From Patescibacteria group bacterium (lineage in GTDB: Bacteria; Patescibacteriota; Patescibacteriia; Magasanikbacterales; GWA2-37-8): DNA of 27,250 bases. This document shows, one piece after another, positions 6,759-26,241 of this stretch. The stretch lies in contig SCQK01000009.1 of NCBI GenBank assembly GCA_004321885.1, forward strand, positions 1 to 27,250, read 5' to 3'. The position numbers and the translations under genes are program-made. The notes beneath the pieces were generated by a model. That model was not told the DNA's origin. It saw nothing but the letters and a program-made list of their open reading frames with translations, and searched no databases. How positions within the stretch are numbered: the stretch's first letter is position 1; every line of letters begins with the position of its first letter.

Positions 6759-6898
6759 TTTCAGGGTTCAATAGAATCCGTGGTTAGCATTATCACTATA
6801 CCAATTTTAATAATATTTGTCAATATCACCTATCCACACCCCCTTTACTAAATGTCTTTTGAGAGATAAGATATATCCAGAAAATTACCCCCACCCAA

Positions 6899-6921
6899 CC
6901 TCCCCCTTATCAAGAGGGAGG
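6899..6921 (+). repeat. family B hairpin element (CCTCCCCC-loop-GGGAGG) supplying the gatB RBS
   Basis: 'cctcccccttatcaagagggagg'. GGGAGG lies 12 nt upstream of the gatB ATG. Confidence 0.6.
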
Positions 6922-6932
6922 AAACAAATTGT

Positions 6933-8741: not shown

Positions 8742-9893
8742 ATGTACCCAGCACGGTTAATTTTAAACACCGGCCAAGAATTTCTCGGCCTTTCACCCGC
8801 CTGGCAAAAAGGCGACTTTTACGGTTTACCCTCACACCAAAAATTTTGGTGTGAGGGCGAGGTTGTTTTTACGACCGGCATGACCGGCTATGTGGAAACT
8901 CTCACCGATCCTTCGTATGCCGGACAAATTATCGTCTTCACCTATCCGCTCATCGGCAACTACGCCGTGCCGCCGGCCAAATTCTGGGAATCGGAAAAAA
9001 TCCACGCGGCCGGAGTGGTGGTAGGCGAGGCGTGCCAGTGGCCTGATACCCCCTCCTCACCTCCCTCCCGAAACAAGTTCGGGACAGGCTCTTATAAAGG
9101 GGGAGGGACTTTGGCCGGATGGCTAAGAGAACAAAAGGTGCCTTTACTCACCGGGGTGGATACTCGCCTGCTTACCAAAACACTACGCGAGAAGGGTGCC
9201 ACGCCCGGAGCGATTACGTCTTACCCCTACCTAACCTCCCCCTTAAAAAGGGGGAGGAACAGGAGGGGGTATAATTTCTTTGACCCGAACGAAACAGATC
9301 TGGTGGCGCTGGTTTCTCCCAAAAGACCGACCACTTACGGCAAGGGGAAAAAGAGAATCATCGCCGTTGATTGCGGGATGAAAAAAAATCTGCTCCGCTC
9401 ACTCTTAAAATTACCGCTGACTATAAAAATCGTGCCGTACGACTACGATTATAACAAAGAAAAATTTGACGGCGTGTTTATCTCCAATGGCCCGGGCGAC
9501 CCGGAACGTTGCGGCCGAACGATAGAAATTCTGCGCCGCGCCATGAAAAAGAAAAAACCGATTTTCGGCGTCTGTCTGGGCAACCAGCTGTTAGCACTGG
9601 CGGCCGGAGCCAAAACCTACAAACTGCCCTTTGGCCACCGCGGACAAAATCAACCCTGCCAAGACAGCGCCACTGGCCGTTGTTATATCACCAGCCAAAA
9701 CCACGGCTACGCCGTGAACCCGGCCACCCTGCCGCCGGACTGGCGCGTGAGTTTCAAAAACTTAAACGACGATTCAGTGGAAGGCATCGGCCACAAATCA
9801 TTGCCGTTTTTCGCCGTGCAATTTCATCCCGAAGCGGCGCCCGGCCCCGCAGACACGCAGTGGCTTTTTGAAAAATTTTATGAAACTTTATAA
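8742..9893 (+). CDS. carA: carbamoyl-phosphate synthase small (glutaminase) subunit
   Basis: 'VVFTTGMTGYVETLTDPSYAGQIIVFTYPLIGNY', 'PIFGVCLGNQLLALAAGAKTYKLPFGHRGQNQP' (catalytic Cys), 'FAVQFHPEA'. Two in-frame family B element insertions. Confidence 0.9.
   Translation: MYPARLILNTGQEFLGLSPAWQKGDFYGLPSHQKFWCEGEVVFTTGMTGYVETLTDPSYAGQIIVFTYPLIGNYAVPPAKFWESEKIHAAGVVVGEACQWPDTPSSPPSRNKFGTGSYKGGGTLAGWLREQKVPLLTGVDTRLLTKTLREKGATPGAITSYPYLTSPLKRGRNRRGYNFFDPNETDLVALVSPKRPTTYGKGKKRIIAVDCGMKKNLLRSLLKLPLTIKIVPYDYDYNKEKFDGVFISNGPGDPERCGRTIEILRRAMKKKKPIFGVCLGNQLLALAAGAKTYKLPFGHRGQNQPCQDSATGRCYITSQNHGYAVNPATLPPDWRVSFKNLNDDSVEGIGHKSLPFFAVQFHPEAAPGPADTQWLFEKFYETL
9049..9108 (+). repeat. family B element (compound) in-frame in carA
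   Basis: 'cccctcctcacctccctcccgaaacaagttcgggacaggctcttataaagggggaggg' encodes 'PSSPPSRNKFGTGSYKGGG'. Contains inner hairpin TCCCGAA-acaag-TTCGGGA. Confidence 0.6.
9235..9272 (+). repeat. family B element in-frame in carA
   Basis: 'cctccccc-ttaaaaa-gggggagg-aacaggagggggtat' encodes 'SPLKRGRNRRGY'. Confidence 0.65.
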
Positions 9894-12800
9894 AGTTATA
9901 ATTCTCGGTTCCGGAGGATTGCAAATCGGCCAGGCCGGCGAGTTTGATTATTCGGGCTCCCAGGCCATCAAGGCCCTGAAAGAAGAAGGCATCAAAACCG
10001 TGCTGGTAAACCCCAACATCGCCACTGTTCAAACCGACCCAAACATGGCTGACGCGCTCTATCTTCAGCCGCTCAATTTTCAAACACTTAAAAAAATTAT
10101 CGCCAAAGAAAAACCGGACGGCATTTTGCTCGGCTTTGGCGGACAAACCGCGCTCAATCTGGGTTTGGAACTGGATGAAAAAGCCGTACTCCAAAAATAC
10201 GGCATGGCCGTGCTGGGTAGCGATACGCAAACAATACGAACAGCCGAAGACAGAAATTTATTCAAAATCGCGCTGGCGAAAATCGGAGTGAAGACTCCGA
10301 AAAGTTTTACCGCGCGCGACGTGAATGAAGCGCTGGCCGCGGGAAAACAAATCAGCTACCCCTTGATGATTCGCAGCGGCTTCTCTTTGGGCGGACTTGG
10401 TTCCGGAAAAATCGCCGACGCGCGGGAACTGAAACAACGCGCAGGCGAAGCGCTCTCCGGCGCCCCGCAAATCCTGGTGGAAGAATACCTGGGCGGCTGG
10501 AAAGAAGTGGAATACGAAGTGGTGCGCGACAGAAAAGACAACACCATTATTGTCTGCAACATGGAAAACATGGACCCGATGGGCATCCATACCGGTGAGA
10601 GCATCGTGGTGGCGCCTTCGCAGACCTTGAACAACGAACAGTATCATCGCCTGCGCGAGCTGTCCATCAAAATCGCCCGCCACCTGAAAATCATCGGCGA
10701 ATGCAACGTGCAATTCGCCTTGCACCCGAAAACCGGCGACTATCGCGTGATAGAACTCAACCCGCGCCTGTCGCGTTCATCGGCTCTGGCTTCCAAAGCC
10801 ACGGGCTATCCCCTGGCCTACATCGCGGCCAAGCTGGCCATCGGCAAACTTTTGCCTGAACTCAAAAATTCAGTCACCAAAAAAACCTCGGCCTTTTTTG
10901 AACCGGCCTTGGATTATCTGACAATAAAAATTCCGCGCTGGGACACAAACAAACTGCGCTCGGCCGAACGCTCCATCGGCTCGGAGATGAAAAGCGTGGG
11001 CGAAGTGATGGCCATTGGACGCTCGTTTCCCGAAGCATTGCAAAAAGCCGTGCGTATGCTGAATATCGGCGCCGACGGGCTAAGCGATTATCCGTTTCCC
11101 ATCGCCGAACCGAAAAAAGAAATGGAGAACGCCACCGACCGACGTTTGTTCGCGCTTTACCAATTTTTTAAAAAAGGCGGCGGCGTAAAAGAAGCCGGGC
11201 AACTTACGAGTATAAACGAATGGTTTCTGGCGCACATCAAAAACATCGCGGCGCTGGAAAAAACAATCAAAAATAAACGACTAACGCCAGCCCTGCTTTT
11301 ACAAGCCAAGCAATTCGGCTTTAGCGACGTCGGTCTGGCAAAATTAAAAAATACTGACGAGAAAAAAATCAGGCGCCTGCGCAAAAAAAACAAAATCCTG
11401 CCGTGCTTTAAACAAATAGACACCCTGGCCGGCGAATATCCGGCCGAGACGAATTATTTATACGCCACCTACCACGGCGCCGGACACGATATCGCCGCTT
11501 TGGACAAAAAACCGATCATCGTCCTCGGCTCTGGTCCGTACGCCATCGGTTCGTCGGTGGAATTTGACTGGTGCGCCGTGAACACGGCCCGCGCCCTGCG
11601 CGCCTTGGACAAAAAAACAATAATGCTCAACTCCAATCCGGAAACAGTCTCCACTGACTACGACGAATCCGACCGTTTGTATTTTGAAGAGCTGACTTTG
11701 GAGCGCGTGGCTGACATCGCTGATTTTGAAGGCGGCGCGAAGGCGTCTTTTGAATCTACACCCGGCATTGTTGTTTCGGTCGGCGGACAAATCGCCAATA
11801 AAATCGCTCTGCCGCTTTTTGAAATGGGTTATAAAATTTTAGGCACCCCGCCCGTGGCCATAGACCAGGCCGAAGACAGACAAAAATTTTCCTCACTCTT
11901 GAATAAATTAAAAATAGACCAGCCGGAATGGATTGAGTCGGGTAATTTGAGTAAAGCCAAGGCTTTCGCCAAAAATTTCGGGTATCCGGTCCTGGTGCGG
12001 CCGTCATACGTGCTCTCTGGCGCGGCCATGAACGTGTGCCCGAACGAAGATGAACTGACAAACTATCTACGTTCGGCTTCGGCCGTTTCTCCCGACCATC
12101 CGGTGGTTATTTCCAAATTTATCACCAATGCCAAAGAGTTAGACATAGACGGAGTGGCCGACAAGGGAAAAATTATAATAGAAGCGATTTGCGAACACGT
12201 GGAAAACGCGGGCGTGCACTCGGGCGACGCCACCCTGGTCTTGCCCCCGCAAAAACTTTATTTGGAAACGATTCGCCGCGCCAAAAACATCGCTCGCGCC
12301 ATCGCCAAATCACTCAAAATCACCGGGCCCTTTAACATCCAGTTCATTGCCAAGGATAACGCGCTCAAAGTGATAGAGTGCAACTTGCGCGCTTCCCGCT
12401 CTTTTCCTTTCGTATCCAAAGTGACCGGACATAATTTCATAGAACTGGCCACCAAGGCCATGCTGGGCGGTGTTGGAGTTCCTCCCCCTCTTAGGGGGAG
12501 GATAAAGGAGGGGGTATTTGAAACCCTGGAGCTCAACCACGTCGGCGTGAAGTCGCCGCAATTTTCTTACCACCGACTGAAAGGAGCCGACCCGGTGGCG
12601 CAAGTGGAAATGGCTTCCACCGGAGAGGTGGCCTGTATCGGCGGCGATTATTTGCGCGCCTTTTATTCTTCCTGGCTGGCCACGGGCAAAAATATCAGCC
12701 GCCGCCGGGCGCTTGTCACCATTGCCGATGAATGCAAACAAAAATTCTTGCCATTAGTGAAAAAAATGGACAAACAGGGCTGGGAAATATATACTACTGC

Positions 12801-13110
12801 CGGCACCCACGACTTTTTGTCGCGCCACGGAGTGGCCAGCAACTTTGTTTACAAAATCAGCGAGCAAAACAAGCCGAACGTGGAGGCAACGATTTCAGAA
12901 AAGCAAGTTGACGTAATCATTGTCATTCCGAGCGAAGCGAGGAATCTCTGTTTATCAAACGACAGCGACGGCTACAAAATTCGCCGGCTGGCCACGGACC
13001 GCCACATCCCACTTATCACCAACTCGCAAACCGCTATTTTGCTCTTGCGCTGTCTCACCGAACTTGACGCCAATAAAATGCCGATAAAATCGTGGCAAGA
13101 ATATTTTTAA
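9868..13110 (+). CDS. carB: carbamoyl-phosphate synthase large subunit
   Basis: 1080 aa. Two ATP-grasp halves ('[20 protein letters not shown]', '[20 protein letters not shown]') and a C-terminal MGS-like domain. Overlaps the carA 3' end by 26 nt. Confidence 0.95.
12481..12517 (+). repeat. family B element in-frame in carB
   Basis: 'cctccccc-tctta-gggggagg-ataaaggagggggtat' encodes '[13 protein letters not shown]'. Confidence 0.7.
12921..12946 (+). repeat. family A short hairpin element in-frame in carB
   Basis: 'tgtcattccgagcgaagcgaggaatc' encodes 'VIPSEARNL' in the MGS-like domain. Confidence 0.6.
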
Positions 13111-13191
13111 TGTCATTGCGAGGAGCGGAGCGACGAAGCAATCCCATACAATTAAGGGGATTGCCACGGCCCTGCGGGCCTCGCAATGACA
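13111..13191 (+). repeat. family A full-length palindromic element filling the carB-pyrB intergenic space
   Basis: Begins immediately after the carB TAA. Termini 'tgtcattgcgagg...cctcgcaatgaca' are 13-bp perfect inverted repeats. Inner hairpin 'gcaatccc...gggattgc'. Confidence 0.75.
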
Positions 13192-13199
13192 ATACAATT

Positions 13200-14120
13200 A
13201 TGCCAAACACACTCAAAGGCAGGGACATAATTTCCATCGCGGAACTTTCCAAGCCGGAAATTCTGCTGGTGCTAAAAAACGCGCAAGAATTAAAAAAACA
13301 CCCGCGCCCGAAACTGCTGGAAGGGCTGGTGATGGGCAGTTGTTTTTTTGAACCCAGCACGCGCACGCGCTTGTCGTTTGAAACAGCCATGCAGAAGTTG
13401 GGCGGACGGGTAATCGGCTTTGCCGACCCGGGCGTGACTTCGGCCAAGAAAGGCGAGTCGCTGTACGACGCCATAAAAATCATCGGCCAATACGTGGATG
13501 TCATCGCCATGCGCCATCCGTTGGAGGGAGCGGCGCGACGCGCGGCCGAGGCCACGGACAAACCAATCATCAACGGCGGCGACGGAGCCAACCAGCACCC
13601 CACCCAAACCCTGCTGGACTTGTTCACTATTCAAGAATGCCAGAAAAAATTAAGCAACCTTCATATCGCCATGGTCGGCGACCTGAAATATGGCCGCACC
13701 GTGCACTCGCTGGCCCAGGCGCTTACCCATTTTGGCGCCCGCCTGTATTTCGTGGCGCCCGACAGCTTGCAGATGCCCGCGTATATTTGCGATGAATTAA
13801 AAACCAAAGGCGTCAAATTCTCCATGCACAAAAAAATGGAAGAGGTAATCGGCAAAGTTGATATTTTTTACATGACCCGCATCCAGGGCGAACGTTTTGC
13901 CGACCCGATGGAGTACGAAAAAGTAAAAAACAGTTTCGTGCTCAAGGCCGACATGCTAAAAAACGCCAAACCAAACCTGAAAATCTTGCACCCCTTGCCG
14001 CGCGTGAACGAAATTGAAACAGCCATAGACAAAACAAAATTCGCCTACTATTTCCAGCAAGCGGAAAACGGGCTCTATGCCCGCCAGGCCCTGCTGGCGA
14101 TGGTGTTGGGAAAAATTTAA
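13200..14120 (+). CDS. pyrB: aspartate carbamoyltransferase catalytic subunit
   Basis: '[11 protein letters not shown]', 'HPTQTLLDL' and 'LHPLPR' motifs. Start taken at 'MPNTLKGRD' (ATG 13200), just after the element. The ORF-track 13092 start reads through the palindrome. Confidence 0.9.
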
Positions 14121-14123
14121 TAA

Positions 14124-14208
14124 TGTCATTGCGAGGCCCAAGGGGCCGAAGCAATCTCAGACAAGTAAGGGATTGCCACGTCGGCCTGCAGGCCTCCTCG
14201 CAATGACA
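14124..14208 (+). repeat. family A full-length palindromic element filling the pyrB-pyrI intergenic space
   Basis: 'tgtcattgcgagg...cctcctcgcaatgaca'. Same architecture as 13111-13191, with a different centre. Confidence 0.75.
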
Positions 14209-14216
14209 AAAATTTT

Positions 14217-14681
14217 ATGAAAGAAAAAAAACTTTTGGTCAACGCCATAAAAAACGGCACGGTGATAGACCACATCACCGCCGGTAGCGCGCTCAAAATC
14301 ATCCGCATCCTCAATCTGGCCAGCCACGAAAAAGTCGTGACGGTCGGGCTGAACTTGCCCAGCAAATCCATGGGGCGCAAGGACTTAATCAAAGTAGCCG
14401 AGCGCGAACTTTCACCCGATGAAGTAAGCAGCGTGGCCATTCTGGCGCCGCAAGCCAGCATCAACATCGTCAAAAATTACGAAATAGTTAAAAAATTTAA
14501 AATAAAACTACCGGAAAAAATTGAGAGCGTAGTTGTTTGCCCCAACCCGAAATGCATTACCAACCACGAGCCCATGGCCAGCGTGTTTTTTATTCTGCCC
14601 AACGGCAAACACATTAAACTGCGTTGTAAATATTGCGAAAAAGTTTTTGGTCACGATGATATCCGTGAATATAGAGTATAA
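14217..14681 (+). CDS. pyrI: aspartate carbamoyltransferase regulatory subunit
   Basis: 'AIKNGTVIDHI', 'GLNLPSKSMGRKDLIKV', zinc domain 'CPNPKCITNHEP...LRCKYCEKVF'. Confidence 0.9.
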   Translation: MKEKKLLVNAIKNGTVIDHITAGSALKIIRILNLASHEKVVTVGLNLPSKSMGRKDLIKVAERELSPDEVSSVAILAPQASINIVKNYEIVKKFKIKLPEKIESVVVCPNPKCITNHEPMASVFFILPNGKHIKLRCKYCEKVFGHDDIREYRV

Positions 14682-14690
14682 AAACACCAT

Positions 14691-15857
14691 ATGAGCCGGC
14701 TCATAACTTTACCCGCTTTGATTGACCCGCACGTGCATTTTCGTACCCCGGGTTCCGAGCACAAAGAGGATTGGATTTGCGGAGCGCGCGCCGCCTTCGC
14801 CGGCGGATACACCACGGTGATTGACATGCCGAACAACAACCCGCCGGCGATTGATGAAGAGTCATTGAATAACAAAATCAAGCTCGTGGAACAACAACTG
14901 TCATTCCTGCGAAAGCAGGAAGGGAGCCCTTCGGGCTCGGAATTCATTTCTGTCCACCCATATTTTTATCTCGGGGTTACTCCCCTCCCCCTTGATAAGG
15001 GGGAGGCAGGGTGGGGGTCGGCGGTAGCCCTCAAAATGTTCATGGGTTCCAGCACCGGCAGTTTGCTGGTGGACAAATACGAAGACCAGGAAAAAATATT
15101 CGCCAAAGCCGCTGAACTTGATTTGCTGGTGGCAGTGCACGCAGAAGATGATGAAACAATAAAAAATAATCAACTGTCATTCCAGCAAAAGCTGGAATCC
15201 ATCGCCAATCCAGTCGCTCTTCACTCGCAAATCCGCTCGCGTGAGGCGGCGATAAAAGCCGTGTCGCAAGCGATTGAACTGGCGGAAAAGACCGGCGCGC
15301 GATTATATATCTGCCATATTAGCACAAAGGAAGAAGCTGAATTGGTTAAATCGGCTAAAGAGCGCGGAGCCAAAATTTATGCCGAAGTCACACCGCATCA
15401 TTTGTTTCTGAACGAAAGCGCGTATGAAACATTGGAGACAAAAGCGCAAATGAATCCGCCTCTGCGCACGGCCGCGGACCAAGCGGCGCTCTGGCAGGCG
15501 ATAAACGACGGAGTAATAGACACCATCGGCACCGACCACGCTCCGCATACTTTGGAAGAAAAAAATCAACCATACCCCAAATCGCCTTCGGGCGTGCCCG
15601 GCATTGAGACATGTTTGCCGCTATTGCTCAACGCGTACAATCAGGGTAAAATCAGTTTAGAGAAAATAGTGGAATTATGCCGGACAAATCCGCAAAAAAT
15701 ATTCCGTTTGCCTGATAACAGTGACGAGGTGATTGTGGATTTGGATTTGGAAAAAGAGGTAAAAAATGAGAATTTAAAAACTAAATGCGGCTGGTCGCCC
15801 TTTGCTGGGTGGAATCTAAAGGGGTGGCCGATAAAAACGATAATTATGAAAAAGTAA
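14691..15857 (+). CDS. pyrC: dihydroorotase
   Basis: 'LIDPHVHFRTPG' metal-binding motif, 'GTDHAPH'. Contains three in-frame element insertions. The stop codon lies inside the left terminal repeat of a MITE-like element. Confidence 0.85.
   Translation: MSRLITLPALIDPHVHFRTPGSEHKEDWICGARAAFAGGYTTVIDMPNNNPPAIDEESLNNKIKLVEQQLSFLRKQEGSPSGSEFISVHPYFYLGVTPLPLDKGEAGWGSAVALKMFMGSSTGSLLVDKYEDQEKIFAKAAELDLLVAVHAEDDETIKNNQLSFQQKLESIANPVALHSQIRSREAAIKAVSQAIELAEKTGARLYICHISTKEEAELVKSAKERGAKIYAEVTPHHLFLNESAYETLETKAQMNPPLRTAADQAALWQAINDGVIDTIGTDHAPHTLEEKNQPYPKSPSGVPGIETCLPLLLNAYNQGKISLEKIVELCRTNPQKIFRLPDNSDEVIVDLDLEKEVKNENLKTKCGWSPFAGWNLKGWPIKTIIMKK
14899..14921 (+). repeat. family A short hairpin in-frame in pyrC
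   Basis: 'tgtcattcctgcgaaagcaggaa' is TTCCTGC-GAAA-GCAGGAA. Encodes 'SFLRKQE'. Followed by a small hairpin 'gagccc-ttc-gggctc'. Confidence 0.7.
14982..15018 (+). repeat. family B element in-frame in pyrC
   Basis: 'cccctccccc-ttgataa-gggggagg-cagggtgggggt' encodes 'PLPLDKGEAGWG'. Confidence 0.7.
15175..15198 (+). repeat. family A short hairpin in-frame in pyrC
   Basis: 'tgtcattccagcaaaagctggaat' is ATTCCAGC-AAAA-GCTGGAAT. Encodes 'LSFQQKLE'. Confidence 0.7.
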
Positions 15858-16014
15858 GAAATTTGAACGGTGGTCTCGCTCGGATAGTTACGGACTCGCT
15901 GTCGCTTTTTGACCCAATGAGCATAATCGCATGGATCAAAATGCCTTCGGCACCGCTCCAACTCGTCTCGTAACTGCACCTCGCTCGCCCAATGTTCAAA
16001 TTTCTTACTTTTTC
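15848..16014 (+). mobile_element. MITE-like element: 21-bp perfect terminal inverted repeats flanking about 125 bp
   Basis: Left 'gaaaaagtaagaaatttgaac' (15848-15868) is the exact reverse complement of right 'gttcaaatttcttactttttc' (15994-16014). The interior carries direct 'CTCGCTCG' repeats. The pyrC TAA is within the left repeat. Confidence 0.5.
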
Positions 16015-16028
16015 TCACATCCATTTTT

Positions 16029-16982
16029 ATGAAACATCTAATCTCCCTAAAGGAACAAACAAAAGAAGACCTGCTGGAAATTTTGGATTTAGCAAAAAAA
16101 GTTAAAGCCACATACAAGGCCGGTGAGACGATGGAGCCATTAAAAAACAAAACCCTGCTCATGCTTTTTCAAAAAAGCTCCACGCGCACGCGCCTGTCGT
16201 TTGAGGCCGGCATAACCGAACTGGGCGGACACGCCATTTTTCTGGACAGCCGCGCCACGCAATTTTCGCTCACTGATTTCGGCGATGAAATAAAAGCCGT
16301 AATGCGCTTTGGCGACATCCTGATGTTTCGGGCCATGAAAGCGGCGGACGTGGAAAAGGCGGCGGGCTTCAATCAGATTCCGGTGATAGACGGTTGCAGT
16401 GAAAAATATCACCCGTGCCAGGCCTTGGGAGACATTTTGACAATGAGTGAGCATGCCAATGGACTGGAAAACGTGAAAAAAATCACTTGGCTGGGAATTG
16501 AAAACAACGTCTCTAACACCCTGACGCTGGCCGGCGCCAAACTGGGAATTGAAGTGACCATCGCCGCGCCCGAAGCCAACCCGGCCAGCGTGGACGCGGA
16601 GTTAAACGCCCAGGCCTCTGCCGTCGGCAAAGTGACACGCACTTTGAATTTGGCCGAAGCGCTGGCTGGCGCGAATTTCATCCACACCGACACCTGGATG
16701 GATATGGAATTTTTTTCCGACGGAAAAGTGAAGCCGCAATTTGAAGCCGAATACGAACGGCGCAAACGGGTGTTCACGCCTTTTCAACTAAACGCGGGCT
16801 TAATAAACACCCACGCCCCGCAAGCGAAAATTATGCACTGCATGCCGTGTCATGTGGGCTATGAAATTTCACGCGACGCCATAGACCATCCCAATTCAAT
16901 AATTTTTGACCAGGCGGAAAATCGCAAACACATCCAAAAAGCGATTATTCTTTGGCTACTTGGTATTCCCTCCCCTTTATAA
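16029..16982 (+). CDS. ornithine-carbamoyltransferase-family transcarbamylase paralog (substrate uncertain)
   Basis: 'STRTRLSFE', 'HPCQALGDILT', 'HCMPC' (OTC HCLP-type) and a C-terminal 'SIIFDQAENRKH' closely like OTCase. The ornithine-binding 'DxxxSMG' is 'DTWMDME'. Confidence 0.75.
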   Translation: MKHLISLKEQTKEDLLEILDLAKKVKATYKAGETMEPLKNKTLLMLFQKSSTRTRLSFEAGITELGGHAIFLDSRATQFSLTDFGDEIKAVMRFGDILMFRAMKAADVEKAAGFNQIPVIDGCSEKYHPCQALGDILTMSEHANGLENVKKITWLGIENNVSNTLTLAGAKLGIEVTIAAPEANPASVDAELNAQASAVGKVTRTLNLAEALAGANFIHTDTWMDMEFFSDGKVKPQFEAEYERRKRVFTPFQLNAGLINTHAPQAKIMHCMPCHVGYEISRDAIDHPNSIIFDQAENRKHIQKAIILWLLGIPSPL

Positions 16983-17004
16983 GGGGAGGGTTAGGGTGGG
17001 GTAT
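16968..17004 (+). repeat. family B element spanning the OTC-paralog stop and the pyrD RBS
   Basis: 'ccctcccc-tttataa-ggggaggg-ttagggtggggtat'. The TAA stop of the upstream gene is inside the hairpin loop. GGGTGGGG lies 5 nt before the pyrD ATG. Confidence 0.7.
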
Positions 17005-17005
17005 T

Positions 17006-17917
17006 ATGCTCACCACAACTTTCCTCAACAAAACTTTCGCCAATCCCATCGTGCTCGCCTCGGGCATTCTTGGCGTGTCGGCCGCCAGTTTGGCGCGGGC
17101 GGTGAAAGATGGCTGCGGCGGAGTGACGGCCAAGTCGGTCTCGCTTGAACCGCGCTCCGGTCATCCCAATCCCACCACCGCCGGCATGGAGCATTTTTTC
17201 ATCAACGCGGTTGGACTTTCCAACCCGGGCGTGGACGCGGCGGTGGAAGAACTGAAAAAATTCAAAGAATTATCCGTCTCACCGCTCATCGGCAGTATTT
17301 TCGCGGGCACGCCTGAGGAGTTCGCCGTCGTGACGGAAAAAATTTGCGCGGCGCCAATTGATTTTCTGGAAATCAATGTTTCCTGCCCGAACGTAAGCAA
17401 AGAATTCGGCAAACCGTTTGCTTACTCCACCGAAGCCGTGGAAATTATCACCAAAAAAGTAAAAGCCAAAGCGACTGTGCCGATAATAATAAAACTTTCT
17501 CCCAATGCCTGGAACATAGACGAAATCGCGCTGGCGGCCGAAACCGCCGGCGCCGACGCCCTTTGCGCCGTCAACACCATCAGCGGCATGATAATTGACT
17601 GCCACAGCCGCAAACCGATATTGCACAACAAACAGGGCGGGGTTTCGGGTCCGGCGCTGCTGCCTATCGCGCTAAAATGCGTGTATGACATTTACAAAAA
17701 AGTGAAAATTCCCATCATTGGCACAGGCGGCATTTGTTCTGGCGAAGACGCGCTGGCCATGATTATGGCCGGAGCGGCTTTGTTGGGTGTTGGCTCGGCC
17801 GTGTATTTCCGCGGGAGCGAGGTGTTTGAAAAAATTTGCGAGGAGATGGAGAAAATAATGGAAGAGGAAGGGATAAAAAATTTGGAGGAAATCCGCGGCG
17901 CGGCGCACTCATCATGA
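17006..17917 (+). CDS. pyrD: dihydroorotate dehydrogenase (class 1B) catalytic subunit
   Basis: 'NPIVLASGILG', 'GLSNPGVDA', 'NVSCPN', 'IIGTGGICSGEDA'. Start taken at 'MLTTTF' after the element-supplied RBS. Confidence 0.85.
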   Translation: MLTTTFLNKTFANPIVLASGILGVSAASLARAVKDGCGGVTAKSVSLEPRSGHPNPTTAGMEHFFINAVGLSNPGVDAAVEELKKFKELSVSPLIGSIFAGTPEEFAVVTEKICAAPIDFLEINVSCPNVSKEFGKPFAYSTEAVEIITKKVKAKATVPIIIKLSPNAWNIDEIALAAETAGADALCAVNTISGMIIDCHSRKPILHNKQGGVSGPALLPIALKCVYDIYKKVKIPIIGTGGICSGEDALAMIMAGAALLGVGSAVYFRGSEVFEKICEEMEKIMEEEGIKNLEEIRGAAHSS

Positions 17918-17921
17918 ATGT

Positions 17922-18067
17922 CCCCCTCCCCTATTTGCGAAAAGAGTGAGAGAAAAAGCAAACTTGTTGCTTTTTCCGAACGAATGAGCAAATATCCGCA
18001 GATATTAGGGGAGGGATAAACCCCGTTAGAGGTCTGCAGACCTCTAACGGGGTAAAGGGTGGGGTTA
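17922..18067 (+). repeat. compound family B region in the pyrD-pyrK intergenic space
   Basis: 'cccctcccc' (17922) pairs with 'ggggaggg' (18008) across a 70-nt insert that contains AAAAAGCAA-acttg-TTGCTTTTT. This is followed by a perfect hairpin 'ccccgttagaggtctgcagacctctaacgggg' (18021-18052). A 'taaagggtggggtt' SD-like tail precedes the pyrK ATG. Confidence 0.6.
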
Positions 18068-18072
18068 AACGT

Positions 18073-18945
18073 ATGGATAGTACAAAATTCTTAAAAATAG
18101 AAAAAATAACAGACGAAACCCCGTTCGTCAAAACATTCTATTTTAATCATCGCCTAAACAGCAAGCCCGGGCAATTTGTGATGCTCTGGCTACCGGGAAT
18201 TGACCAAAAACCGTTTTCCATCGGCTGGGAAGATGAAAACGGCTTTGCCCTGACTGTGTTCAATCGCGGACCGACGACGAACAAACTGTTTGAAATGAAA
18301 GCCGGCGAACGAGTGGGCATTAGCGGGCCCTACGGTACTTCTTTTTCCGTGCGCCCAAACACGCGCTATATCATGGTCGCCGGCGGCTATGGCGCCGCGC
18401 CTCTTTCTTTTTTGGCCAAGCAGCTATCTGTCATTGCGAGGAGCGTAGCGACGAAGCAATCCCAATCTACAAAAATTGATTTCCTCCTCGGCGCCCGCTC
18501 GGCCGAACACGTGCTATTTGAAGACCGTCTGTCAAAATTACCCAACACCAAAATCCACATCGCCACCGACGACGGCAGTAAGGGACATAAGGGATTTGTG
18601 ACCGACCTGCTTTCATCTGTCATTCCTGCGAAAGCAGGAATCCACGACAACTCACTGGATGCCCGTTTTCACGGGCATGACATATTCGTCTGCACTTGCG
18701 GCCCCGAACTGATGGAAAAAAAAGTTTTGGACGCTTGCAACGTCGCCGGCGTGGAATGCGAAATCAGCATTGAACGCTACATGAAATGCGGCGTGGGCGT
18801 GTGCGGACAATGCGCCGTGGACGACCTGGGCCTGCATATGTGCAAAGAAGGGCCGGTGGTAAGCGGCGCGCTCGCCAGTCAAATTAAAGAGTTCGGCGTC
18901 TACCATCGCGACAAAAGCGGGAAAAAAGTATACTTCGAAAATTAA
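18073..18945 (+). CDS. pyrK: dihydroorotate dehydrogenase electron-transfer (FAD/2Fe-2S) subunit
   Basis: FAD/NAD-binding fold and C-terminal 'CGVGVCGQCAV' cluster motif. Two in-frame family A insertions. Confidence 0.85.
   Translation: MDSTKFLKIEKITDETPFVKTFYFNHRLNSKPGQFVMLWLPGIDQKPFSIGWEDENGFALTVFNRGPTTNKLFEMKAGERVGISGPYGTSFSVRPNTRYIMVAGGYGAAPLSFLAKQLSVIARSVATKQSQSTKIDFLLGARSAEHVLFEDRLSKLPNTKIHIATDDGSKGHKGFVTDLLSSVIPAKAGIHDNSLDARFHGHDIFVCTCGPELMEKKVLDACNVAGVECEISIERYMKCGVGVCGQCAVDDLGLHMCKEGPVVSGALASQIKEFGVYHRDKSGKKVYFEN
18429..18463 (+). repeat. family A half-element in-frame in pyrK
   Basis: 'tgtcattgcgaggagcgtagcgacgaagcaatccc' matches the left 35 nt of the 13111 element with one mismatch. 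Encodes 'SVIARSVATKQSQ'. Confidence 0.75.
18618..18642 (+). repeat. family A short hairpin in-frame in pyrK
   Basis: 'tgtcattcctgcgaaagcaggaatc' matches the pyrC copy at 14899. Encodes 'SVIPAKAGIH'. Confidence 0.75.
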
Positions 18946-18961
18946 GTCCAAAGCCAATTAT

Positions 18962-19006
18962 AAAAAAAGAAAAAGCTCTCATTCCGTGCGATGACGAAAC
19001 GAGAGC
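18962..19006 (-). terminator. rho-independent terminator for the - strand GC-rich gene
   Basis: - strand: GCTCTCGTTTCG-loop-CGGAATGAGAGC (imperfect 11-bp stem) followed by TTTTTCTTTTTTT. Confidence 0.5.
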
Positions 19007-19082
19007 GAAACGAACCGAGGGACCAAGTGACCCAAGCCCTTCCGATTTGGCGAAAGGGCTGAGGCACCAAGGATCCCAGGGC

Positions 19083-19730
19083 CTACTTGCCGCGAGGAAG
19101 GAGATAGGAGGCGCCGAAGCCGTAGACAACCCAGCGGACGTCCAGCACCCAGCGAGCGCCGACCCAGGAGAGACAGGCCACGTAGAGGCCGCCACGCCGG
19201 CCGCGCAAAAGCGTGCCCGGCAGGACGATGATCTTGTCCTGCATCTCCTTCGGGATCTCGGCCTGGCACTCCAGCATACGCTTGCCATCCACCAGGCCGT
19301 AGTTGGCCTTGAGGACGACGGCGCGGGCGCGCATGACCTCGCCGTTGACATAGCCCGGGTCATCGGGCTCGAGGAAGGACACATACTCCAAGTCCTTCAC
19401 CTCGAACTGCGACGGGGCCACATCCTCCACCACCTCCCACTTGCGCTTCTTGCCTGCCTCGTCCTCGTACTCGGGGATGAGGTCGGCGGCGAGCAACTCG
19501 GACGGGAGCTGGTCGCGCTTGATCGATGCCGCCACGCTTTCGCCGTTTTCCTCGCCGATCGGCTCCAGCTTCAGCCGGAGCTTGCCGGCGCGAAACAGCT
19601 CCACGTTCTGCGCGCCCGTCTCACATCCGCCGAACTCCGCCCACAGCTTGAGGATCATGGCCCAGATCTGCTTCCCTGTCAGACCCTCCAGCACGGCCTC
19701 CAGTGTCTTCCCTTCCACTCTCGAACTCAT
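19083..19730 (-). CDS. hypothetical protein in a GC-rich (about 62% GC) inserted segment
   Basis: ATG with AAGGAG 7 nt upstream. Balanced E/K/D/L composition, unlike the Ala/Arg/Leu-rich overlapping frames. Terminator downstream. Interrupts pyrK...pyrE. Confidence 0.5.
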   Translation of the reverse strand: MSSRVEGKTLEAVLEGLTGKQIWAMILKLWAEFGGCETGAQNVELFRAGKLRLKLEPIGEENGESVAASIKRDQLPSELLAADLIPEYEDEAGKKRKWEVVEDVAPSQFEVKDLEYVSFLEPDDPGYVNGEVMRARAVVLKANYGLVDGKRMLECQAEIPKEMQDKIIVLPGTLLRGRRGGLYVACLSWVGARWVLDVRWVVYGFGASYLLPRGK

Positions 19731-19895
19731 GGCTGTTCTCCTTTCCGGCGCCTCGCCAGAATGGCAATTTGCCCCGCCCCGGGGCTCGGGTTTTTATGCT
19801 AAAAATAACAAAGAGCTAACAGCGATTTATATCACAACATTACTGCTTCTGTCAAGCTAAACACCGTCACAACCGCCATATCCTTTCACAAACCC

Positions 19896-19928
19896 TTGCG
19901 CGATTATCTGCGCGATTCTTGCGCGATT
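19896..19928 (+). promoter_or_regulatory. three direct repeats of TGCGCGATT (11-12 bp spacing) just upstream of the fic -10
   Basis: 'ttgcgcgatt' 19896, 'ctgcgcgatt' 19908, 'ttgcgcgatt' 19919. Operator- or iteron-like. Confidence 0.5.
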
Positions 19929-19938
19929 TAATTTTTTA

Positions 19939-19947
19939 TGGTATGAT
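19939..19947 (+). promoter_or_regulatory. extended -10 promoter TGGTATGAT for fic-pyrE-pyrF
   Basis: TGnTATGAT 29 nt upstream of the fic ATG. Same box type as 'TGGTATAAT' at 6712-6720. Confidence 0.45.
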
Positions 19948-19975
19948 ATTGGCAAGGAATTCTTCGGCCTAAACT

Positions 19976-21031
19976 ATGTTTGAACCAAAGTATAAAATCA
20001 CCAATCAAATCATCCAGATGCTCACCGCCATCGCCGAGGCCAAGGCGATTATTGAACGCGCGCGCCTTTTGCCGAAGCACGAACTCAAACTGCGACGCCA
20101 GGCCCTTCTCCGCATGACCCACAGCTCCACGGCCATAGAAGGCAACCGGCTGAATATGCGCGAAGTGGAGGCCGTGGCGGCGCGCAAAAAAGTGGATGCC
20201 CCGGAACGCGAAATCTATGAAGTAAAAAACTACCTGGAAGCGATTCGCTACATTGAAAAAGTCGTAAAAAACAACCAGCCAATCACCGAAAAGATTATCT
20301 TACAAATTCACCGGCTTGTAACCGACAAAACTTTGCCGGCACATTCCTCGGGGCAATATCGCAAAGGGCCGGTGTATGTGGTGCGGCGCTGGAGAGACGG
20401 CCGCCAGGAAGTTTTGTATACCGCGGCTGGCGCCGGACAAGTCCCCGGTCTTATGGCCGGCTTAACGCGCTGGCTCGCTGAAAGTGAAACGCAAAATATC
20501 AGCCCAGTCATCGTGGCCGGTATCGCGCACCAGGAAATCGCGGCTATTCACCCCTTTGCCGACGGTAATGGCCGCACCGCGCGCGCCCTGGCCACGCTTA
20601 TCCTTTACCGACGCGGCTACGACTTTCGCCGCCTTTTCGCCCTGGAAGATTTCTACAACGAAGACAGGCCGTCGTATTATCGCGCCATCAACGTCGGCAA
20701 AAACTACCAACAGCGCCGCGTTGATTTTACGCCATGGCTGGAATATTTTGTGCGCGGATTTAAGGAAGAAATTATTAAAGTGAAAAATAACGTGCTCACA
20801 CTATCGGCCAAAAAGGTTGACAAAAAAATTGAAGCGCAAATTTATCTTGATAAAGACCAGCTCAAAATTTTGGAGTTTGCCGACCAGATGGGAAAAATAT
20901 CCGTGGGCGACGTGGTGGATATTTTGAGTTGTCCCAAACGCACCGCCCAATCGTATCTACAAAAATTAAAAAAACTGAAAATTATCCGGCAAGTCGGCAA
21001 AGGGCCGGCCAGCGGATATATAATAGCGTGA
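19976..21031 (+). CDS. fic: Fic/Doc family protein (class II, N-terminal inhibitory helix) with C-terminal winged-helix domain
   Basis: Fic motif 'HPFADGNGRTARAL'. Inhibitory motif 'STAIEG' ([ST]xxxE[GN]) near the N-terminus. C-terminal HTH-like 'ISVGDVVDILSCPKRTAQSYLQKL'. Stop is 6 nt before the pyrE ATG. Confidence 0.85.
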   Translation: MFEPKYKITNQIIQMLTAIAEAKAIIERARLLPKHELKLRRQALLRMTHSSTAIEGNRLNMREVEAVAARKKVDAPEREIYEVKNYLEAIRYIEKVVKNNQPITEKIILQIHRLVTDKTLPAHSSGQYRKGPVYVVRRWRDGRQEVLYTAAGAGQVPGLMAGLTRWLAESETQNISPVIVAGIAHQEIAAIHPFADGNGRTARALATLILYRRGYDFRRLFALEDFYNEDRPSYYRAINVGKNYQQRRVDFTPWLEYFVRGFKEEIIKVKNNVLTLSAKKVDKKIEAQIYLDKDQLKILEFADQMGKISVGDVVDILSCPKRTAQSYLQKLKKLKIIRQVGKGPASGYIIA

Positions 21032-21634: not shown

Positions 21635-21640
21635 CAAATA

Positions 21641-21754
21641 CCCCTCCCCCACCCTCCCCTTATAAAGGGGAGGGTGCAATTTTCCTCCCCCTTTATAAGG
21701 GGGAGGCTCGCCACCACACCAAATGCTTTGGTGTGGTGGCGAGGAGGGGGTAAA
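21641..21754 (+). repeat. two tandem family B hairpins plus a 14-bp perfect hairpin and SD tail in the pyrE-pyrF spacer
   Basis: 'ccctcccc-ttataaa-ggggaggg', 'cctccccc-tttataa-gggggagg', 'ctcgccaccacacc-aaatgcttt-ggtgtggtggcgag' (21707-21743), then 'gagggggtaaaaatt' before ATG. Confidence 0.7.
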
Positions 21755-24164: not shown

Positions 24165-24250
24165 ACCCCCTCCTCTGTCCTCCACCTAAAAGGGGGAGAA
24201 AAGTGACAGTGTTACCCCTCCCTCGCCCTCCCCTTATAAAGGGGAGGGAA
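24165..24250 (+). repeat. compound family B element in the nif3-hypothetical spacer
   Basis: 'cccccctcctctgtcctccacctaaaagggggag...cccctccctcgccctcccc-ttataaa-ggggaggg'. Confidence 0.6.
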
Positions 24251-25215: not shown

Positions 25216-25233
25216 AATATGTACCTAACTTTT

Positions 25234-25270
25234 CTCTCCCCTTTATAAGGGGAGAGACAGAGAGGGGTAA
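25234..25270 (+). repeat. family B element upstream of nif3
   Basis: 'ctctcccc-tttataa-ggggagag-acagagaggggtaat'. Confidence 0.65.
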
Positions 25271-25559: not shown

Positions 25560-26118
25560 ACGCTCTGGTGGAGTATTCGCCCGTTTCGGTATTTACCAGA
25601 ATCTCTTCGCCTTCTTTTATGAATATCGGGGCCTGAATTTTTAATCCGTTTTCCAAAGTGATTTCTTTGGTGACGTTGCCCGAAGCGCTGTCGCCCTTGA
25701 CCGCCGGCGGCGCGTCAATCACCTTGTATTGAATCTTTTTCGGTATCTGCGCGGAAACCGGCCGGCCCTCGTACAGCCCCACGACCACGTCTATCCCTTC
25801 TTTCAGATACTTGGCCTCGTCGCCGAGCAAATCGTTGTTCATCTCTATCTGCTCATAGGTGCTCATGTTCATGAAAGCGAAATTGGCGCCGCTTTTGTAC
25901 AAATACTGCATAGAATGAAACTCCACCTCCACGATATCCACGCTTTCGCTGGTTTTGTAGGTTATTTCAATCACCTTGCCCGAGGCCAAACTTTTCATCC
26001 GCACGCGCACAAAAGCCGCGCCCTTGCCAGGGTTGACGTGCTGAAAATCCACCACGACAAACAAATCATTCTGGTGCCTGATGACTACCCCTTTTCTGAT
26101 TTCGCTGGTAGGGGCCAT
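25558..26118 (-). CDS. efp: translation elongation factor P
   Basis: 'VDFQHVNPGKGAAFVRVRMK' (modifiable Lys in the PGKG loop). Three OB/KOW-like domains. 186 aa. Confidence 0.9.
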   Translation of the reverse strand: MAPTSEIRKGVVIRHQNDLFVVVDFQHVNPGKGAAFVRVRMKSLASGKVIEITYKTSESVDIVEVEFHSMQYLYKSGANFAFMNMSTYEQIEMNNDLLGDEAKYLKEGIDVVVGLYEGRPVSAQIPKKIQYKVIDAPPAVKGDSASGNVTKEITLENGLKIQAPIFIKEGEEILVNTETGEYSTRA

Positions 26119-26130
26119 AAAAAAACTCTA

Positions 26131-26241
26131 AATGTCAAAATCCAAATTTCCAATATCAAATCAATTTTTAATGTCAAATTTCAAATGTCCAATTTGACAT
26201 TTGGATTTTTGTCATTGATTTGACATTGGAAATTTGACATT
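26131..26241. repeat. array of 9-11-nt 'TTTGACATT' repeats: three in - orientation, then three or four in + orientation
   Basis: 'aatgtcaaa' at 26131, 26170 and 26184 (variant). 'tttgacatt' at 26193, 26218 and 26233. 'tttgtcatt' at 26207. Near-palindromic centre 'aaatgtccaatttgacattt'. Lies in the efp upstream region and runs into the epmA 3' end. Confidence 0.7.

Follow-up and report, generated by a model that had tools for sequence, protein, structure and literature searches.

The pyrimidine genes of this Patescibacteria bacterium raise the question of how one family of hairpins, marked by the motif TGTCATTSC, came to lie both between the genes of essential enzymes and, in-frame, within them. 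The stretch analysed, a metagenome-assembled contig of 27.25 kb, is referred to here as the window. We consider it likely that the hairpins are small non-autonomous repeats of the CGTC/TGTC-tagged REP superfamily, of the kind recognised by Ssn nucleases, a superfamily that has already been described under the names of CGTC/TGTC-tagged REPs, the NTS/SRM repeats of Ssn nucleases and RPE-4/-6.

Hairpin units in the pyr genes

Nine exact matches to TGTCATTSC were found on the two strands of the window, all inside 12921 to 18626, compared with an average of 0.50 and at most 2 in dinucleotide shuffles (0 of 100 reached nine), and no other copy of the family occurs elsewhere in the window at zero or one mismatch. 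A preliminary description of such a hairpin family at 12921 to 18642 was accurate in motif count and coordinates; its seven copies in 6 kb stand as seven sites, which hold ten hairpin units, a minus-strand unit at 18656 to 18682 having been overlooked. A scan-statistic approximation puts P at about 6e-4 for seven sites falling within 5.8 kb of the 27.25 kb. The sites are as follows.

12921 to 12948, plus strand: single unit in carB, TGTC-ATTCC-GAGCGAAGCGA-GGAAT-CTC, encoding VIPSEARNL in the MGS-like C-terminal domain
13111 to 13191: inverted dimer of 81 nt in the carB-pyrB spacer, perfect 13-nt terminal inverted repeats TGTCATTGCGAGG/CCTCGCAATGACA; unit 13111 to 13145 (plus), spacer 13146 to 13156, unit 13157 to 13191 (minus), TGTC tags outward
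14124 to 14208: inverted dimer of 85 nt in the pyrB-pyrI spacer, the same perfect 13-nt terminal inverted repeats; unit 14124 to 14158 (plus), unit 14169 to 14208 (minus), tags outward
14899 to 14945, plus strand: composite unit in pyrC, TGTCATTCCTGCgaaaGCAGGAA, then GGGAGCCCTTCGGGCTC, then GGAATTC, encoding SFLRKQEGSPSGSEF
15175 to 15201, plus strand: short unit in pyrC, TGTC-ATTCCAGC-AAAA-GCTGGAAT-CCA, encoding (L)SFQQKLES
18429 to 18463, plus strand: long-form single unit in pyrK, TGTC-ATTGC-GAGGAGCGTAGCGACGAA-GCAAT-CCC, encoding VIARSVATKQS
18618 to 18682: in-frame inverted dimer of 65 nt in pyrK, the third dimer of the window, encoding VIPAKAGIHDNSLDARFHGHD; unit 18618 to 18644 (plus), TGTC-ATTCCTGC-GAAA-GCAGGAAT-CCA, and unit 18656 to 18682 (minus), TGTCATGCCCGTgaaaACGGGCATCCA, read as TGTC-ATGCCCGT-GAAA-ACGGGCAT-CCA

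An unpaired TGTC tag, a stem that starts with A-T/T-A and a CC(A) or C(T)C tail are common to all units. In the short form, a stem of 8 bp encloses a 4-nt loop, and the earlier characterization of the short copies as perfect stem-loops holds for the units at 15175, 18618 and 18682 (minus strand) only; the composite at 14899 has a 7-bp stem, and at 12921 and 18429 the Watson-Crick closing stem is just 5 bp long. In the long form (ATTGC...GCAAT), the interior is a second helix, often with tandem sheared G·A pairs and ending in a GNA-type triloop; it measures 18 to 23 nt in the window units and 10 to 26 nt at the other loci examined. In support of this pairing, 312 of 460 cells are Watson-Crick in register, compared with 74 to 115 when the partner is shifted, and the tandem GA/AG switches with two Watson-Crick pairs. 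Under nearest-neighbour rules the units at 12921 and 18429 folded no better than their shuffles (z = -0.4 and +0.4), the unit at 15175 gave z = -5.3, and the dimer at 18618 to 18682 gave z = -5.9, with -6.7 and -4.9 for its single units. The 47-nt composite at 14899 carries a 17-nt GC hairpin between duplicated GGAA. The unit at 13111 to 13145 differs from the pyrK unit at 18429 to 18463 at 1 of 35 nt, the N of the GNA triloop.

Insertion into conserved coding sequence

Six of the ten units, at five of the seven sites, are intragenic, lying in surface loops of the encoded enzymes, and all of their host ORFs are intact; the five in-frame peptides of the preliminary description (among them VIPSEARNL, VIARSVATKQS and VIPAKAGIH) had been read correctly, and such repeat-encoded strings do recur in other proteins and orthologues. 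Comparison with orthologues and solved homologues demonstrates that the units are true insertions. CarB has a net gain of 3 residues, its unit (GTC ATT CCG) overlying native AAY ATY CCN at a site that reads (V/I)NIP-SGQGKK / RGLSPT in the orthologues of loci L002 and L003. PyrC is 11 residues longer at 14899 than the orthologues of L001 to L004 and L006, with a 13-residue gap in the PDB chain 7uof_A, and at 15175 it has a net 6 residues more than those of L001 and L006. PyrK gains 9 and about 11 to 16 residues; orthologues of 260 to 268 residues are without the insert at 18429, where the Lactococcus enzyme (L. lactis PyrK, 1ep1_B) shows a 10-residue gap. In a structural model of PyrK, most of the insert V120-S130 falls in block 121-130, where the mean pLDDT is 79, compared with 94 to 97 in the flanking blocks; residues 190-198, at the site of the 18618 to 18682 dimer, fall below 50. 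The units are longer than the net gains, so that clean insertion boundaries cannot be drawn.

The same positions have been occupied repeatedly. Intact units are absent from L001, L005 and L006 and numerous in L002 to L004, and the same kind of unit lies in the same genes in GCA_023246655.1, JGI 3300014208 and GCA_964413355.1. At the pyrC site 15175, a different unit begins at the same nucleotide in L003, and a pair of units in a different phase is present in L004; the pyrK codon of 18618 is the site of a dimer in L004, of a single unit in L003 and of a scar in L001. Five or more extra residues occur at the same two PyrK loops in 49 of 120 orthologues (41%), mostly as unit-type peptides of differing phases and subtypes. 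The pyrK units of the window and L004 are identical at 21 of 24 and 19 of 24 positions, compared with 64.5% for the remaining gene and 43% at third codon positions, and the differences inside the units are compensatory.

The window is a metagenome-assembled contig, repeats often break or confuse assemblies, and many Ssn-like genes sit on contigs of 0.5 to 1 kb, so that an artefact (repeats collapsed into genes during assembly) or chance (native coding sequence that happens to resemble hairpins) has to be weighed. Nine matches against 0.5 expected, the intact host ORFs, independent assemblies with units in the same genes and loops, and identical units across phyla leave this explanation barely credible, and assembly error, which the preliminary description had named as grounds for refutation, is likewise improbable. 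Its observation that every intragenic copy preserves frame is correct, but reflects survivorship in intact essential genes and is not inherent in the element: most of the unit lengths (27, 28, 35 and 47 nt) are not divisible by three, five of six frames are open per unit, and the in-frame units use two reading phases.

Intergenic dimers and a possible role in RNA

The two intergenic dimers, whose 13-nt terminal inverted repeats we verified, each start beside a stop codon. In carB, the stop occupies 13108 to 13110 and the dimer follows without a gap; in pyrB, the stop (14118 to 14120) is followed by a second TAA and the dimer starts at 14124. Exactly 8 nt separate the end of each from the following ATG (13200 and 14217), so that the dimers fill 81 of 89 and 85 of 96 nt, in agreement with the earlier statement that they occupy these spacers. 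This exact placement would suit hairpins kept mainly for a role in pyr-operon RNA (intercistronic processing, mRNA stabilization or translational coupling), with mobility secondary, as would their folding as RNA (-43.5 kcal/mol, z = -6.9, and -46.2 kcal/mol, z = -6.1, for the carB-pyrB and pyrB-pyrI dimers, respectively), the co-orientation of all 10 single units of the window and L002 to L004 with the host or upstream gene, and the roles as RNA elements that REPs are thought to have in other bacteria. As DNA, the same dimers fold with z = -7.7 (-28.1 kcal/mol) and z = -4.75.

We nevertheless regard this as unlikely to be the main reason for their presence, since these sequences are spread over many phyla, turn up in unrelated contexts and are present on viral contigs, the unit at 13111 to 13145 being identical over 35 nt to one in an Anaerolineae MAG. 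The same spacers exist without elements in L001 (69 nt between pyrB and pyrI) and L006, no T-run or terminator-like signal was found to coincide with the elements, the units had no match in Rfam, and an RNA role leaves the flanking of GIY-YIG genes by units (below) unexplained. An RNA-level role is compatible with the mobile-repeat explanation and does not exclude it.

Family resemblance and association with GIY-YIG genes

Among CGTC-REPs, many repeats have TGTC in place of CGTC as their tag, stems of 8 to 9 bp start with AT and enclose loops of 4 to 5 nt, tails fit CCA, inverted dimers are frequent, and copies lie <20 bp past the 3' end of the preceding ORF (PMC3733652). The units at 15175, 18618 and 18682 (minus strand) fit all of these published features. 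The window family is closest in description to CGTC-1 (Di Nocera, De Gregorio & Rocco 2013, PMC3733652), sharing its tag, 8-bp AT-starting stem, 4-nt loop, CCA tail, inverted dimers, placement directly behind the upstream ORF and sporadic intragenic copies that keep the frame, but departs from it in the long form, where a 5-bp closing stem and a structured interior replace the 4- to 5-nt loop, and in its high intragenic share. That survey reported five phyla, mostly with Alphaproteobacteria, and may not have included Patescibacteria. The superfamily takes in Neisseria dRS3/NTS and the Rickettsia elements RPE-4 and RPE-6, which were equated with CGTC-4 and CGTC-1 and occur as intragenic copies in R. 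conorii (PMC3733652). Like RPE-4/RPE-6, the units described here are palindromes in-frame in conserved coding genes, adding short peptides to genes that stay intact, with some genes hit twice and a reduced genome in both hosts; the host phylum differs, and here the same two PyrK loops are occupied recurrently by differing subtypes in differing phases.

The resemblance extends to the Neisseria repeats, the targets of SsnA, a GIY-YIG (cd10448) single-stranded DNA endonuclease (PMC11893778). The unit at 18618 (TGTCATTCCTGCGAAAGCAGGAATCCAC) is near NTS (CGTCATTCCCGCGMAVGCGGGAATCYRG), and TGTCATTCCCGCGAAGGCGGGAATCCAG, present at 10597 in L003 and 4395 in L004 (both Patescibacteria), has 27 of 28 positions of the NTS consensus. 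The search pattern for Ssn-related motifs (SRM) matched the window twice, at 15175 and at the minus-strand unit 18656 to 18682, against 0.05 expected from shuffles, whereas the long form lies outside the literal published pattern, as does the unit at 18618. As in Neisseria, units cluster around particular genes and repeat-gene-repeat cassettes exist, though no ssn gene was seen in the window contig; no GIY-YIG gene was found in its 27 kb or in 10 other Patescibacteria loci examined.

The long form was found at at least 120 genome loci in many phyla, including Chloroflexota, Planctomycetota, Bacillota, Bacteroidota, Pseudomonadota, Patescibacteria and Elusimicrobiota. Five independent loci carry an Ssn-like gene with inverted long-form units on both sides within about 100 bp: L027, L053 and L102, selected by their units, and L127 and L128, selected independently by protein and giving the same flanking picture (L129, a second contig with the same protein as that set and near-identical flanks, was not counted as independent). 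The first Ssn query was an approximate consensus, and its matches were checked with Pfam only, not against cd10448. The flanked proteins have 95 to 103 residues and a single PF01541 domain, and in P0122, Tyr6, Tyr17 and Glu65 align with SsnA Y6, Y17 and E64, residues that were mutated in SsnA (PMC11893778). Among 15 small ORFs with units on both sides, GIY-YIG was the sole recurring real gene. In the L102 cassette, the tags point inward, not outward.

Two other enzymes of mobility can be weighed against these associations. REP/REPIN elements mobilized by RAYT, an IS200/IS605-like tyrosine (HUH) transposase, as proposed for GTAG-tagged REPs, share the architecture of tagged hairpins whose inverted doublets form one long hairpin, with singlets as remnants, and are likewise thought to act as single-stranded DNA; structurally related repeats exist (PMC3733652), and no target-site duplication was visible at the few sites inspected. 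Here, however, the tag is TGTC rather than GTAG, phmmer with IS200 TnpA (an approximate query, from which RAYTs are distant) gave no match at E<10 over 950 kb of loci that carry units, and GIY-YIG is the only real gene repeatedly flanked, so that mobilization by RAYT appears very improbable. The occurrence of units on at least 120 IMG/VR viral contigs could instead suggest passive targets of a site-specific recombinase (compare dRS3 and the Neisseria phage recombinase), or spread by an enzyme yet to be linked to them. This, too, seems quite doubtful: the window units adjoin no recombinase or phage genes, the unit-bearing viral loci showed no Ssn-like ORF and, on a first look, no common gene, and GIY-YIG was the only recurrent neighbour found.

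Under the preferred reading, two inverted units with tags outward would form the ends of a small cassette around a single-domain GIY-YIG (Ssn-type) gene, the dimers of 65 to 85 nt would be gene-less miniatures of that cassette, which the 81- and 85-nt palindromes indeed look like, and single units would be half-elements. The units may work as single-stranded DNA hairpins to which an Ssn-type nuclease, encoded in another part of the genome, binds and next to which it cuts, and their spread or homogenization may depend on such an enzyme or on recombination between copies. Ssn proteins have been shown to cut single-stranded DNA and to lower transformation in Neisseria, not to transpose repeats (PMC11893778), and the transformation role was shown in Neisseria only. 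The contig has no Ssn gene, and we infer that a homologue is present and acting in this organism; the way in which new copies are made is likewise inferred. Copies would persist where they are harmless, directly after stop codons or in surface loops of proteins, with only in-frame insertions surviving. The pyr genes of this bacterium would place a known and very widespread class of repeats within a tiny Patescibacteria genome, in the genes of its essential pyrimidine enzymes.

Anatomy and gene context of the Family A units

The motif TGTCATTSC matches the two strands of the window nine times, always within 12921-18626, with a dinucleotide-shuffle mean of 0.50 and no shuffle reaching nine. A hairpin-aware scan (TGTC, stem, loop, stem, CC) found 10 units of Family A, the TGTC-tagged hairpin repeats in and between the pyrimidine genes, all inside 5.8 kb of the 27-kb contig. 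No more Family A copies were found anywhere else in the window, and degenerate copies at two mismatches occur in it at chance level (48 matches vs. 43 expected). The family put forward in the preliminary description is real and extends further than was described there: the motif copies listed were correct, but the minus-strand unit at 18682 (TGTCATGCCCGTgaaaACGGGCATCCA) had been overlooked, which forms with the unit at 18618 a 65-nt inverted dimer translated within PyrK. The gene names used were also right, because Pfam assigns the same genes.

Table. Family A units (by start coordinate, from the hairpin-aware scan), genes (assigned by Pfam) and a second repeat family in the window
12921, 13111, 14124, 14899, 15175, 18429, 18618; plus strand; Family A units
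13191, 14208, 18682; minus strand; Family A units
8742-9893; carA
9868-13110; carB
13200-14120; pyrB
14217-14681; pyrI
14691-15857; pyrC
16029-16982; second carbamoyltransferase-like gene
17006-17917; pyrD
18073-18945; pyrK
further along than pyrK; pyrE, pyrF
6885-6923, 9091-9112, 9221-9271, 12478-12515, 14981-15018, 16966-17003, 21638-21719, 24212-24250, 25232-25269; second repeat family

TGTC stands directly before the stem in 10 of 10 units. Those at 15175, 18618 and 18682(-) have an 8-bp stem, a GAAA or AAAA loop and a CCA 3' tail; the copy at 14899 is a 47-nt composite in which a duplicated GGAA encloses an extra GC hairpin, with a 7-bp stem followed by GG and no CCA tail; and the six long-form units combine a 5-bp AT-first stem with a structured interior and a 3' tail of CCC or CTC. 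Two intergenic palindromes, 81 and 85 nt long and perfect over their 13-nt ends, were confirmed as first described; they start 0 and 3 nt past the stop codons, and both stop exactly 8 nt short of the next ATG. Dimers fold much better than shuffles (DNA z -4.75 to -7.7) and short units also fold better (z -4.9 to -6.7), while the single long-form units 12921 and 18429 fold no better than shuffles under nearest-neighbour rules. Single units of the window and of three related loci (L002-L004) are oriented with their host or upstream gene in 10 of 10 cases (two-sided binomial P ~0.002, our own calculation).

The window is a complete contig of 27,250 bp from an NCBI metagenome-assembled 'Patescibacteria group bacterium', and the proteins most similar to its PyrK come from Candidatus Magasanikbacteria. 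Neither a usable replication-strand signal in GC skew nor any tRNA (ARAGORN) was found in the window. The aspartate/ornithine carbamoyltransferase-like gene at 16029-16982, between pyrC and pyrD, has a position conserved in the related loci L001, L003, L004 and L006. Between pyrK and pyrE lie an ORF at 19047-19802 without Pfam match and a Fic-domain gene at 19976-21031; pyrE follows pyrK directly in L001, L004 and L005, GC is raised to 0.54-0.55 across 19047-21031, and this stretch is possibly an inserted island.

Other repeats occur in the same contig. The second family, CCCTCCCC-TTTATAA-GGGGAGGG then GGGTGGGG, is present in at least 10 copies. Some of them are read in-frame as part of carA, carB and pyrC, and one overlaps the end of the carbamoyltransferase-like ORF just ahead of the pyrD start. 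A 167-nt element at 15848-16014, unrelated to Family A, has 26-nt arms that are 92% complementary and takes up the whole spacer that separates pyrC from the carbamoyltransferase-like gene; the pyrD-pyrK spacer (17918-18072) is made up of nested palindromes, among them a perfect stem of 12 bp (AACCCCGTTAGAGGTCTGCAGACCTCTAACGGGGT) and ends resembling Family B; and at 26117-26257, between efp and a class-II tRNA-synthetase gene, AATGTCAAA(T)TT recurs in AT-rich, iteron-like repeats, both direct and inverted.

Insertions in the pyrimidine enzymes and recurrence at two PyrK loops

Six orthologous pyr loci (L001-L006) were retrieved via PyrK homologues. Intact TGTCAT hairpins are missing from L001, L005 and L006, where TGTCAT is at background frequency; L002-L004 contain 8-20 units per locus (8 to 11 in L004 and L003, 15 to 20 in L002). 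The pyrB-pyrI spacer is 69 nt long and AT-rich in L001 vs. 248 nt with several units in L002. An assembly artefact as the source of the repeats is one of the less well supported readings.

Family A units are insertions relative to the orthologous loci and to solved homologues, with gaps in the latter opposite both inserts in PyrK and the first one in PyrC. The insertion boundaries are blurred because the net gains are below unit lengths, and in CarB the GTC ATT CCG of the unit overlies conserved native Asn-Ile-Pro codons.

Table. Net gain in amino acids at unit-bearing sites relative to orthologues
CarB site; +3
PyrC site 1; +11
PyrC site 2; +6
PyrK site 1; +9
PyrK site 2; about +11 to +16

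In an AlphaFold model of PyrK with a mean pLDDT of 88, the inserts fall between predicted secondary-structure elements and pLDDT is lower there (79 in block 121-130, 74 in 181-190 and 49 in 191-200, with values under 50 for residues 190-193 and 195-198). The same two loops carry inserts far more widely: 49 of 120 PyrK orthologues have at least five extra residues at one of them, and in most cases the insert reads as a unit-type peptide, in sense (VI[PL]SE.., CHPE..) or in antisense (..R[ND]DN) orientation. The inserts differ in phase and subtype, which argues for repeated events or turnover at what would be tolerated sites.

At PyrK site 2, the units of the window, L003 and L004 begin at one shared codon position, and L001, which lacks intact units, carries TGTCATTC-T-GAATCC (10516-10530) at that same codon, apparently the scar of a unit whose central hairpin was lost. 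Between the window and L004, the two PyrK units are identical at 21 of 24 and 19 of 24 positions, with compensatory differences, and the remainder of pyrK has 64.5% identity, with 43% at third codon positions. The pyrK hairpins may either be under selection or be re-copied from other genomic copies.

Small PF05635 genes ('23S rRNA intervening-sequence protein', bAvd-like) are also inserted in pyr-operon spacers of two of the relatives (L002 6785-7150 and L006 4786-5139). An inverted repeat (TTCACAGCCAACAGCCAATAG / CTATTGGCTGTGAAC) brackets the one in L006, an arrangement suggestive of a further small mobile cassette.

The long form and its association with Ssn-like genes

A scan of one genome per bacterial species for TGTCATTGCGAGG-N14-20-GCAATC found the long form in at least 120 genome loci, with the matches listed coming from Chloroflexota, Planctomycetota, Bacillota, Bacteroidota, Pseudomonadota, Patescibacteria, Elusimicrobiota, Nitrospirota and other phyla, and with an identical 35-mer shared by the window and an Anaerolineae MAG. 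Across the 18-nt interiors of 92 distinct units, in-register pairing occurs at 312 of 460 cells vs. 74-115 in shifted registers, and two neighbouring interior positions hold tandem G·A/A·G in 57 units and two Watson-Crick pairs in 28. In the 5'-GA/3'-AG context found here, sheared G·A pairs in tandem are known to be stable. The in-register pairing and the switch between G·A and Watson-Crick pairs indicate that the supposed loop of the long form is a helix capped by a GNA-type triloop. Units lie inside a long ORF in 19 of 50 cases in Patescibacteria vs. 52 of 247 in other phyla, a comparison that we discount because these are stop-to-stop ORFs, often spurious in GC-rich genomes and repeat arrays.

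The long form was also found in at least 120 IMG/VR viral contigs, with no Ssn-like ORF in 1.08 Mb around the units of the viral contigs listed. Phages might carry the repeats from host to host, or the units on viral contigs may belong to host DNA flanking prophages.

A phmmer search of all ORFs of 127 loci with an approximate consensus of Ssn-like proteins (single-domain GIY-YIG ssDNA endonucleases) returned three proteins of 95-103 aa, each with PF01541 only, and all three genes have long-form units on both sides within about 100 bp. A further protein search with these three, aimed at Ssn homologues in Patescibacteria, was dominated by Oscillospiraceae relatives among the best 120 of 8000 candidates. 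Three loci selected by protein (L127, L128 and L129) share one arrangement: a unit, ~30-60 nt, the gene, ~15-45 nt and an inverted unit, with tags outward. Five independent loci in other phyla have a PF01541-only candidate Ssn protein (95-103 aa) whose gene is flanked by long-form units, and the Ssn-like GIY-YIG gene is the only recurring real gene among small ORFs with units on both sides. A 75-aa ORF flanked by units in L002 was considered as an enzyme candidate and rejected, as it matches no Pfam family and resembles a small membrane protein. On two Oscillospiraceae-like contigs (L127 3001-3291 and L128 3001-3291) the cassette lies in a conserved dnaA-dnaN-(S4-like)-recF-gyrB neighbourhood, beside the replication origin region.

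The dimers of the window share the tags-outward geometry of the cassette with a spacer of only 11 nt, and we propose that they would be gene-less miniatures of it. Neither the window nor 10 further loci from Patescibacteria contain a GIY-YIG gene, so we only infer an Ssn-type enzyme acting in the window organism. Targeting of the hairpins by a recombinase is a less well supported route. We rejected a classical DDE-derived MITE: terminal inverted repeats are present but target-site duplications are lacking, with no direct duplication flanking the units at the three dimers or at the inspected Ssn cassettes. An RNA-level role of the intergenic dimers is plausible, but it leaves both the cross-phylum distribution and the association with GIY-YIG genes unexplained, and the units show no terminator-like signal (in 12800-19000, none of 10 terminator-like matches, sought as a GC-rich hairpin with a T-run behind it, coincides with a unit, and their total is not above shuffles) and no Rfam match (0 across the whole window at the gathering threshold).

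Relation to known repeat classes and significance

CGTC-tagged REPs have an 8-9 bp stem whose first pairs are A-T and T-A, a loop of 4-5 nt (other lengths in some families) and mostly a CCA tail, with the tag 'changed to TGTC' in many repeats; they form frequent inverted dimers, lie within 20 bp of the end of an upstream ORF, include in-frame intragenic copies and are scattered over the genome in high copy number (PMC3733652). The window units share with them the TGTC tag, the dimers, the position after stop codons and the in-frame intragenic copies; the CCA tail is shared by 15175, 18618 and 18682(-); the stem and loop dimensions fit these three and nearly fit 14899, whereas the six long-form units differ. 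Judged by these traits, Family A very probably belongs to the CGTC/TGTC-tagged REP superfamily, a known class. Mobilisation by a RAYT, as for REP/REPIN elements, is less well supported, since the tag of the units is TGTC whereas REP/REPIN elements have a GTAG tag and flank a Y1 (IS200-like) transposase gene, and a phmmer search with IS200 TnpA, of limited sensitivity to distant RAYTs, gave no match in 127 loci (950 kb).

The Neisseria NTS (CGTCATTCCCGCGMAVGCGGGAATCYRG) is bound and cut as ssDNA by SsnA, a 94-aa single-domain GIY-YIG nuclease (cd10448), and ssn genes across phyla are flanked by 'Ssn-related motifs' (SRM; 2025, PMC11893778). The published SRM pattern, HGTCWYN(0-2)YYVSBRHN(0-5)WNVSBRGN(0-2)RNCYNB (PMC11893778), is matched by 15175 and 18682(-) vs. 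0.05 matches expected, and 18618 misses it by one stem transition; the long forms cannot fit it because their interiors are long. Units of L003 and L004 equal the Neisseria NTS consensus at 27 of 28 positions.

No report of REPs in the Candidate Phyla Radiation was found in the literature searched. What is new here is the host lineage of the repeats, how densely in-frame copies occupy essential pyrimidine genes and recur at fixed loops, the long-form variant with its structured interior, and the association of this variant with Ssn-like cassettes. A repeat class recently explained as targets of Ssn ssDNA nucleases is now placed in the Candidate Phyla Radiation, and the motif definition is widened by a long ATTGC form, which we predict to be a structured hairpin with tandem G·A pairs, near-unchanged across many phyla and flanking Ssn-like genes. 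The repeat-encoded peptides (VIPAKAGIQ, VIARS..TKQS, CHPERSEGS and ..RGNDN) inflate protein lengths and can seed false homology, and the repeats give rise to spurious small ORFs, 12955-13197(-) among them.

Even in a minimal genome, essential enzymes are open to repeat colonisation, repeatedly at the same surface loops. Patescibacteria are thought to depend on DNA uptake. The pyrK units keep their sequence and pairing in a gene otherwise saturated at synonymous sites, and the unit-less relative has the apparent scar; on these grounds we raise the speculative and rather improbable reading that in Patescibacteria the DNA hairpins in and around the pyr operon are actively maintained rather than mere passengers, perhaps as a barrier or guide, dependent on Ssn, when incoming ssDNA recombines. 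If this were true, the Neisseria mechanism would be a pan-bacterial system, reaching into coding sequence.
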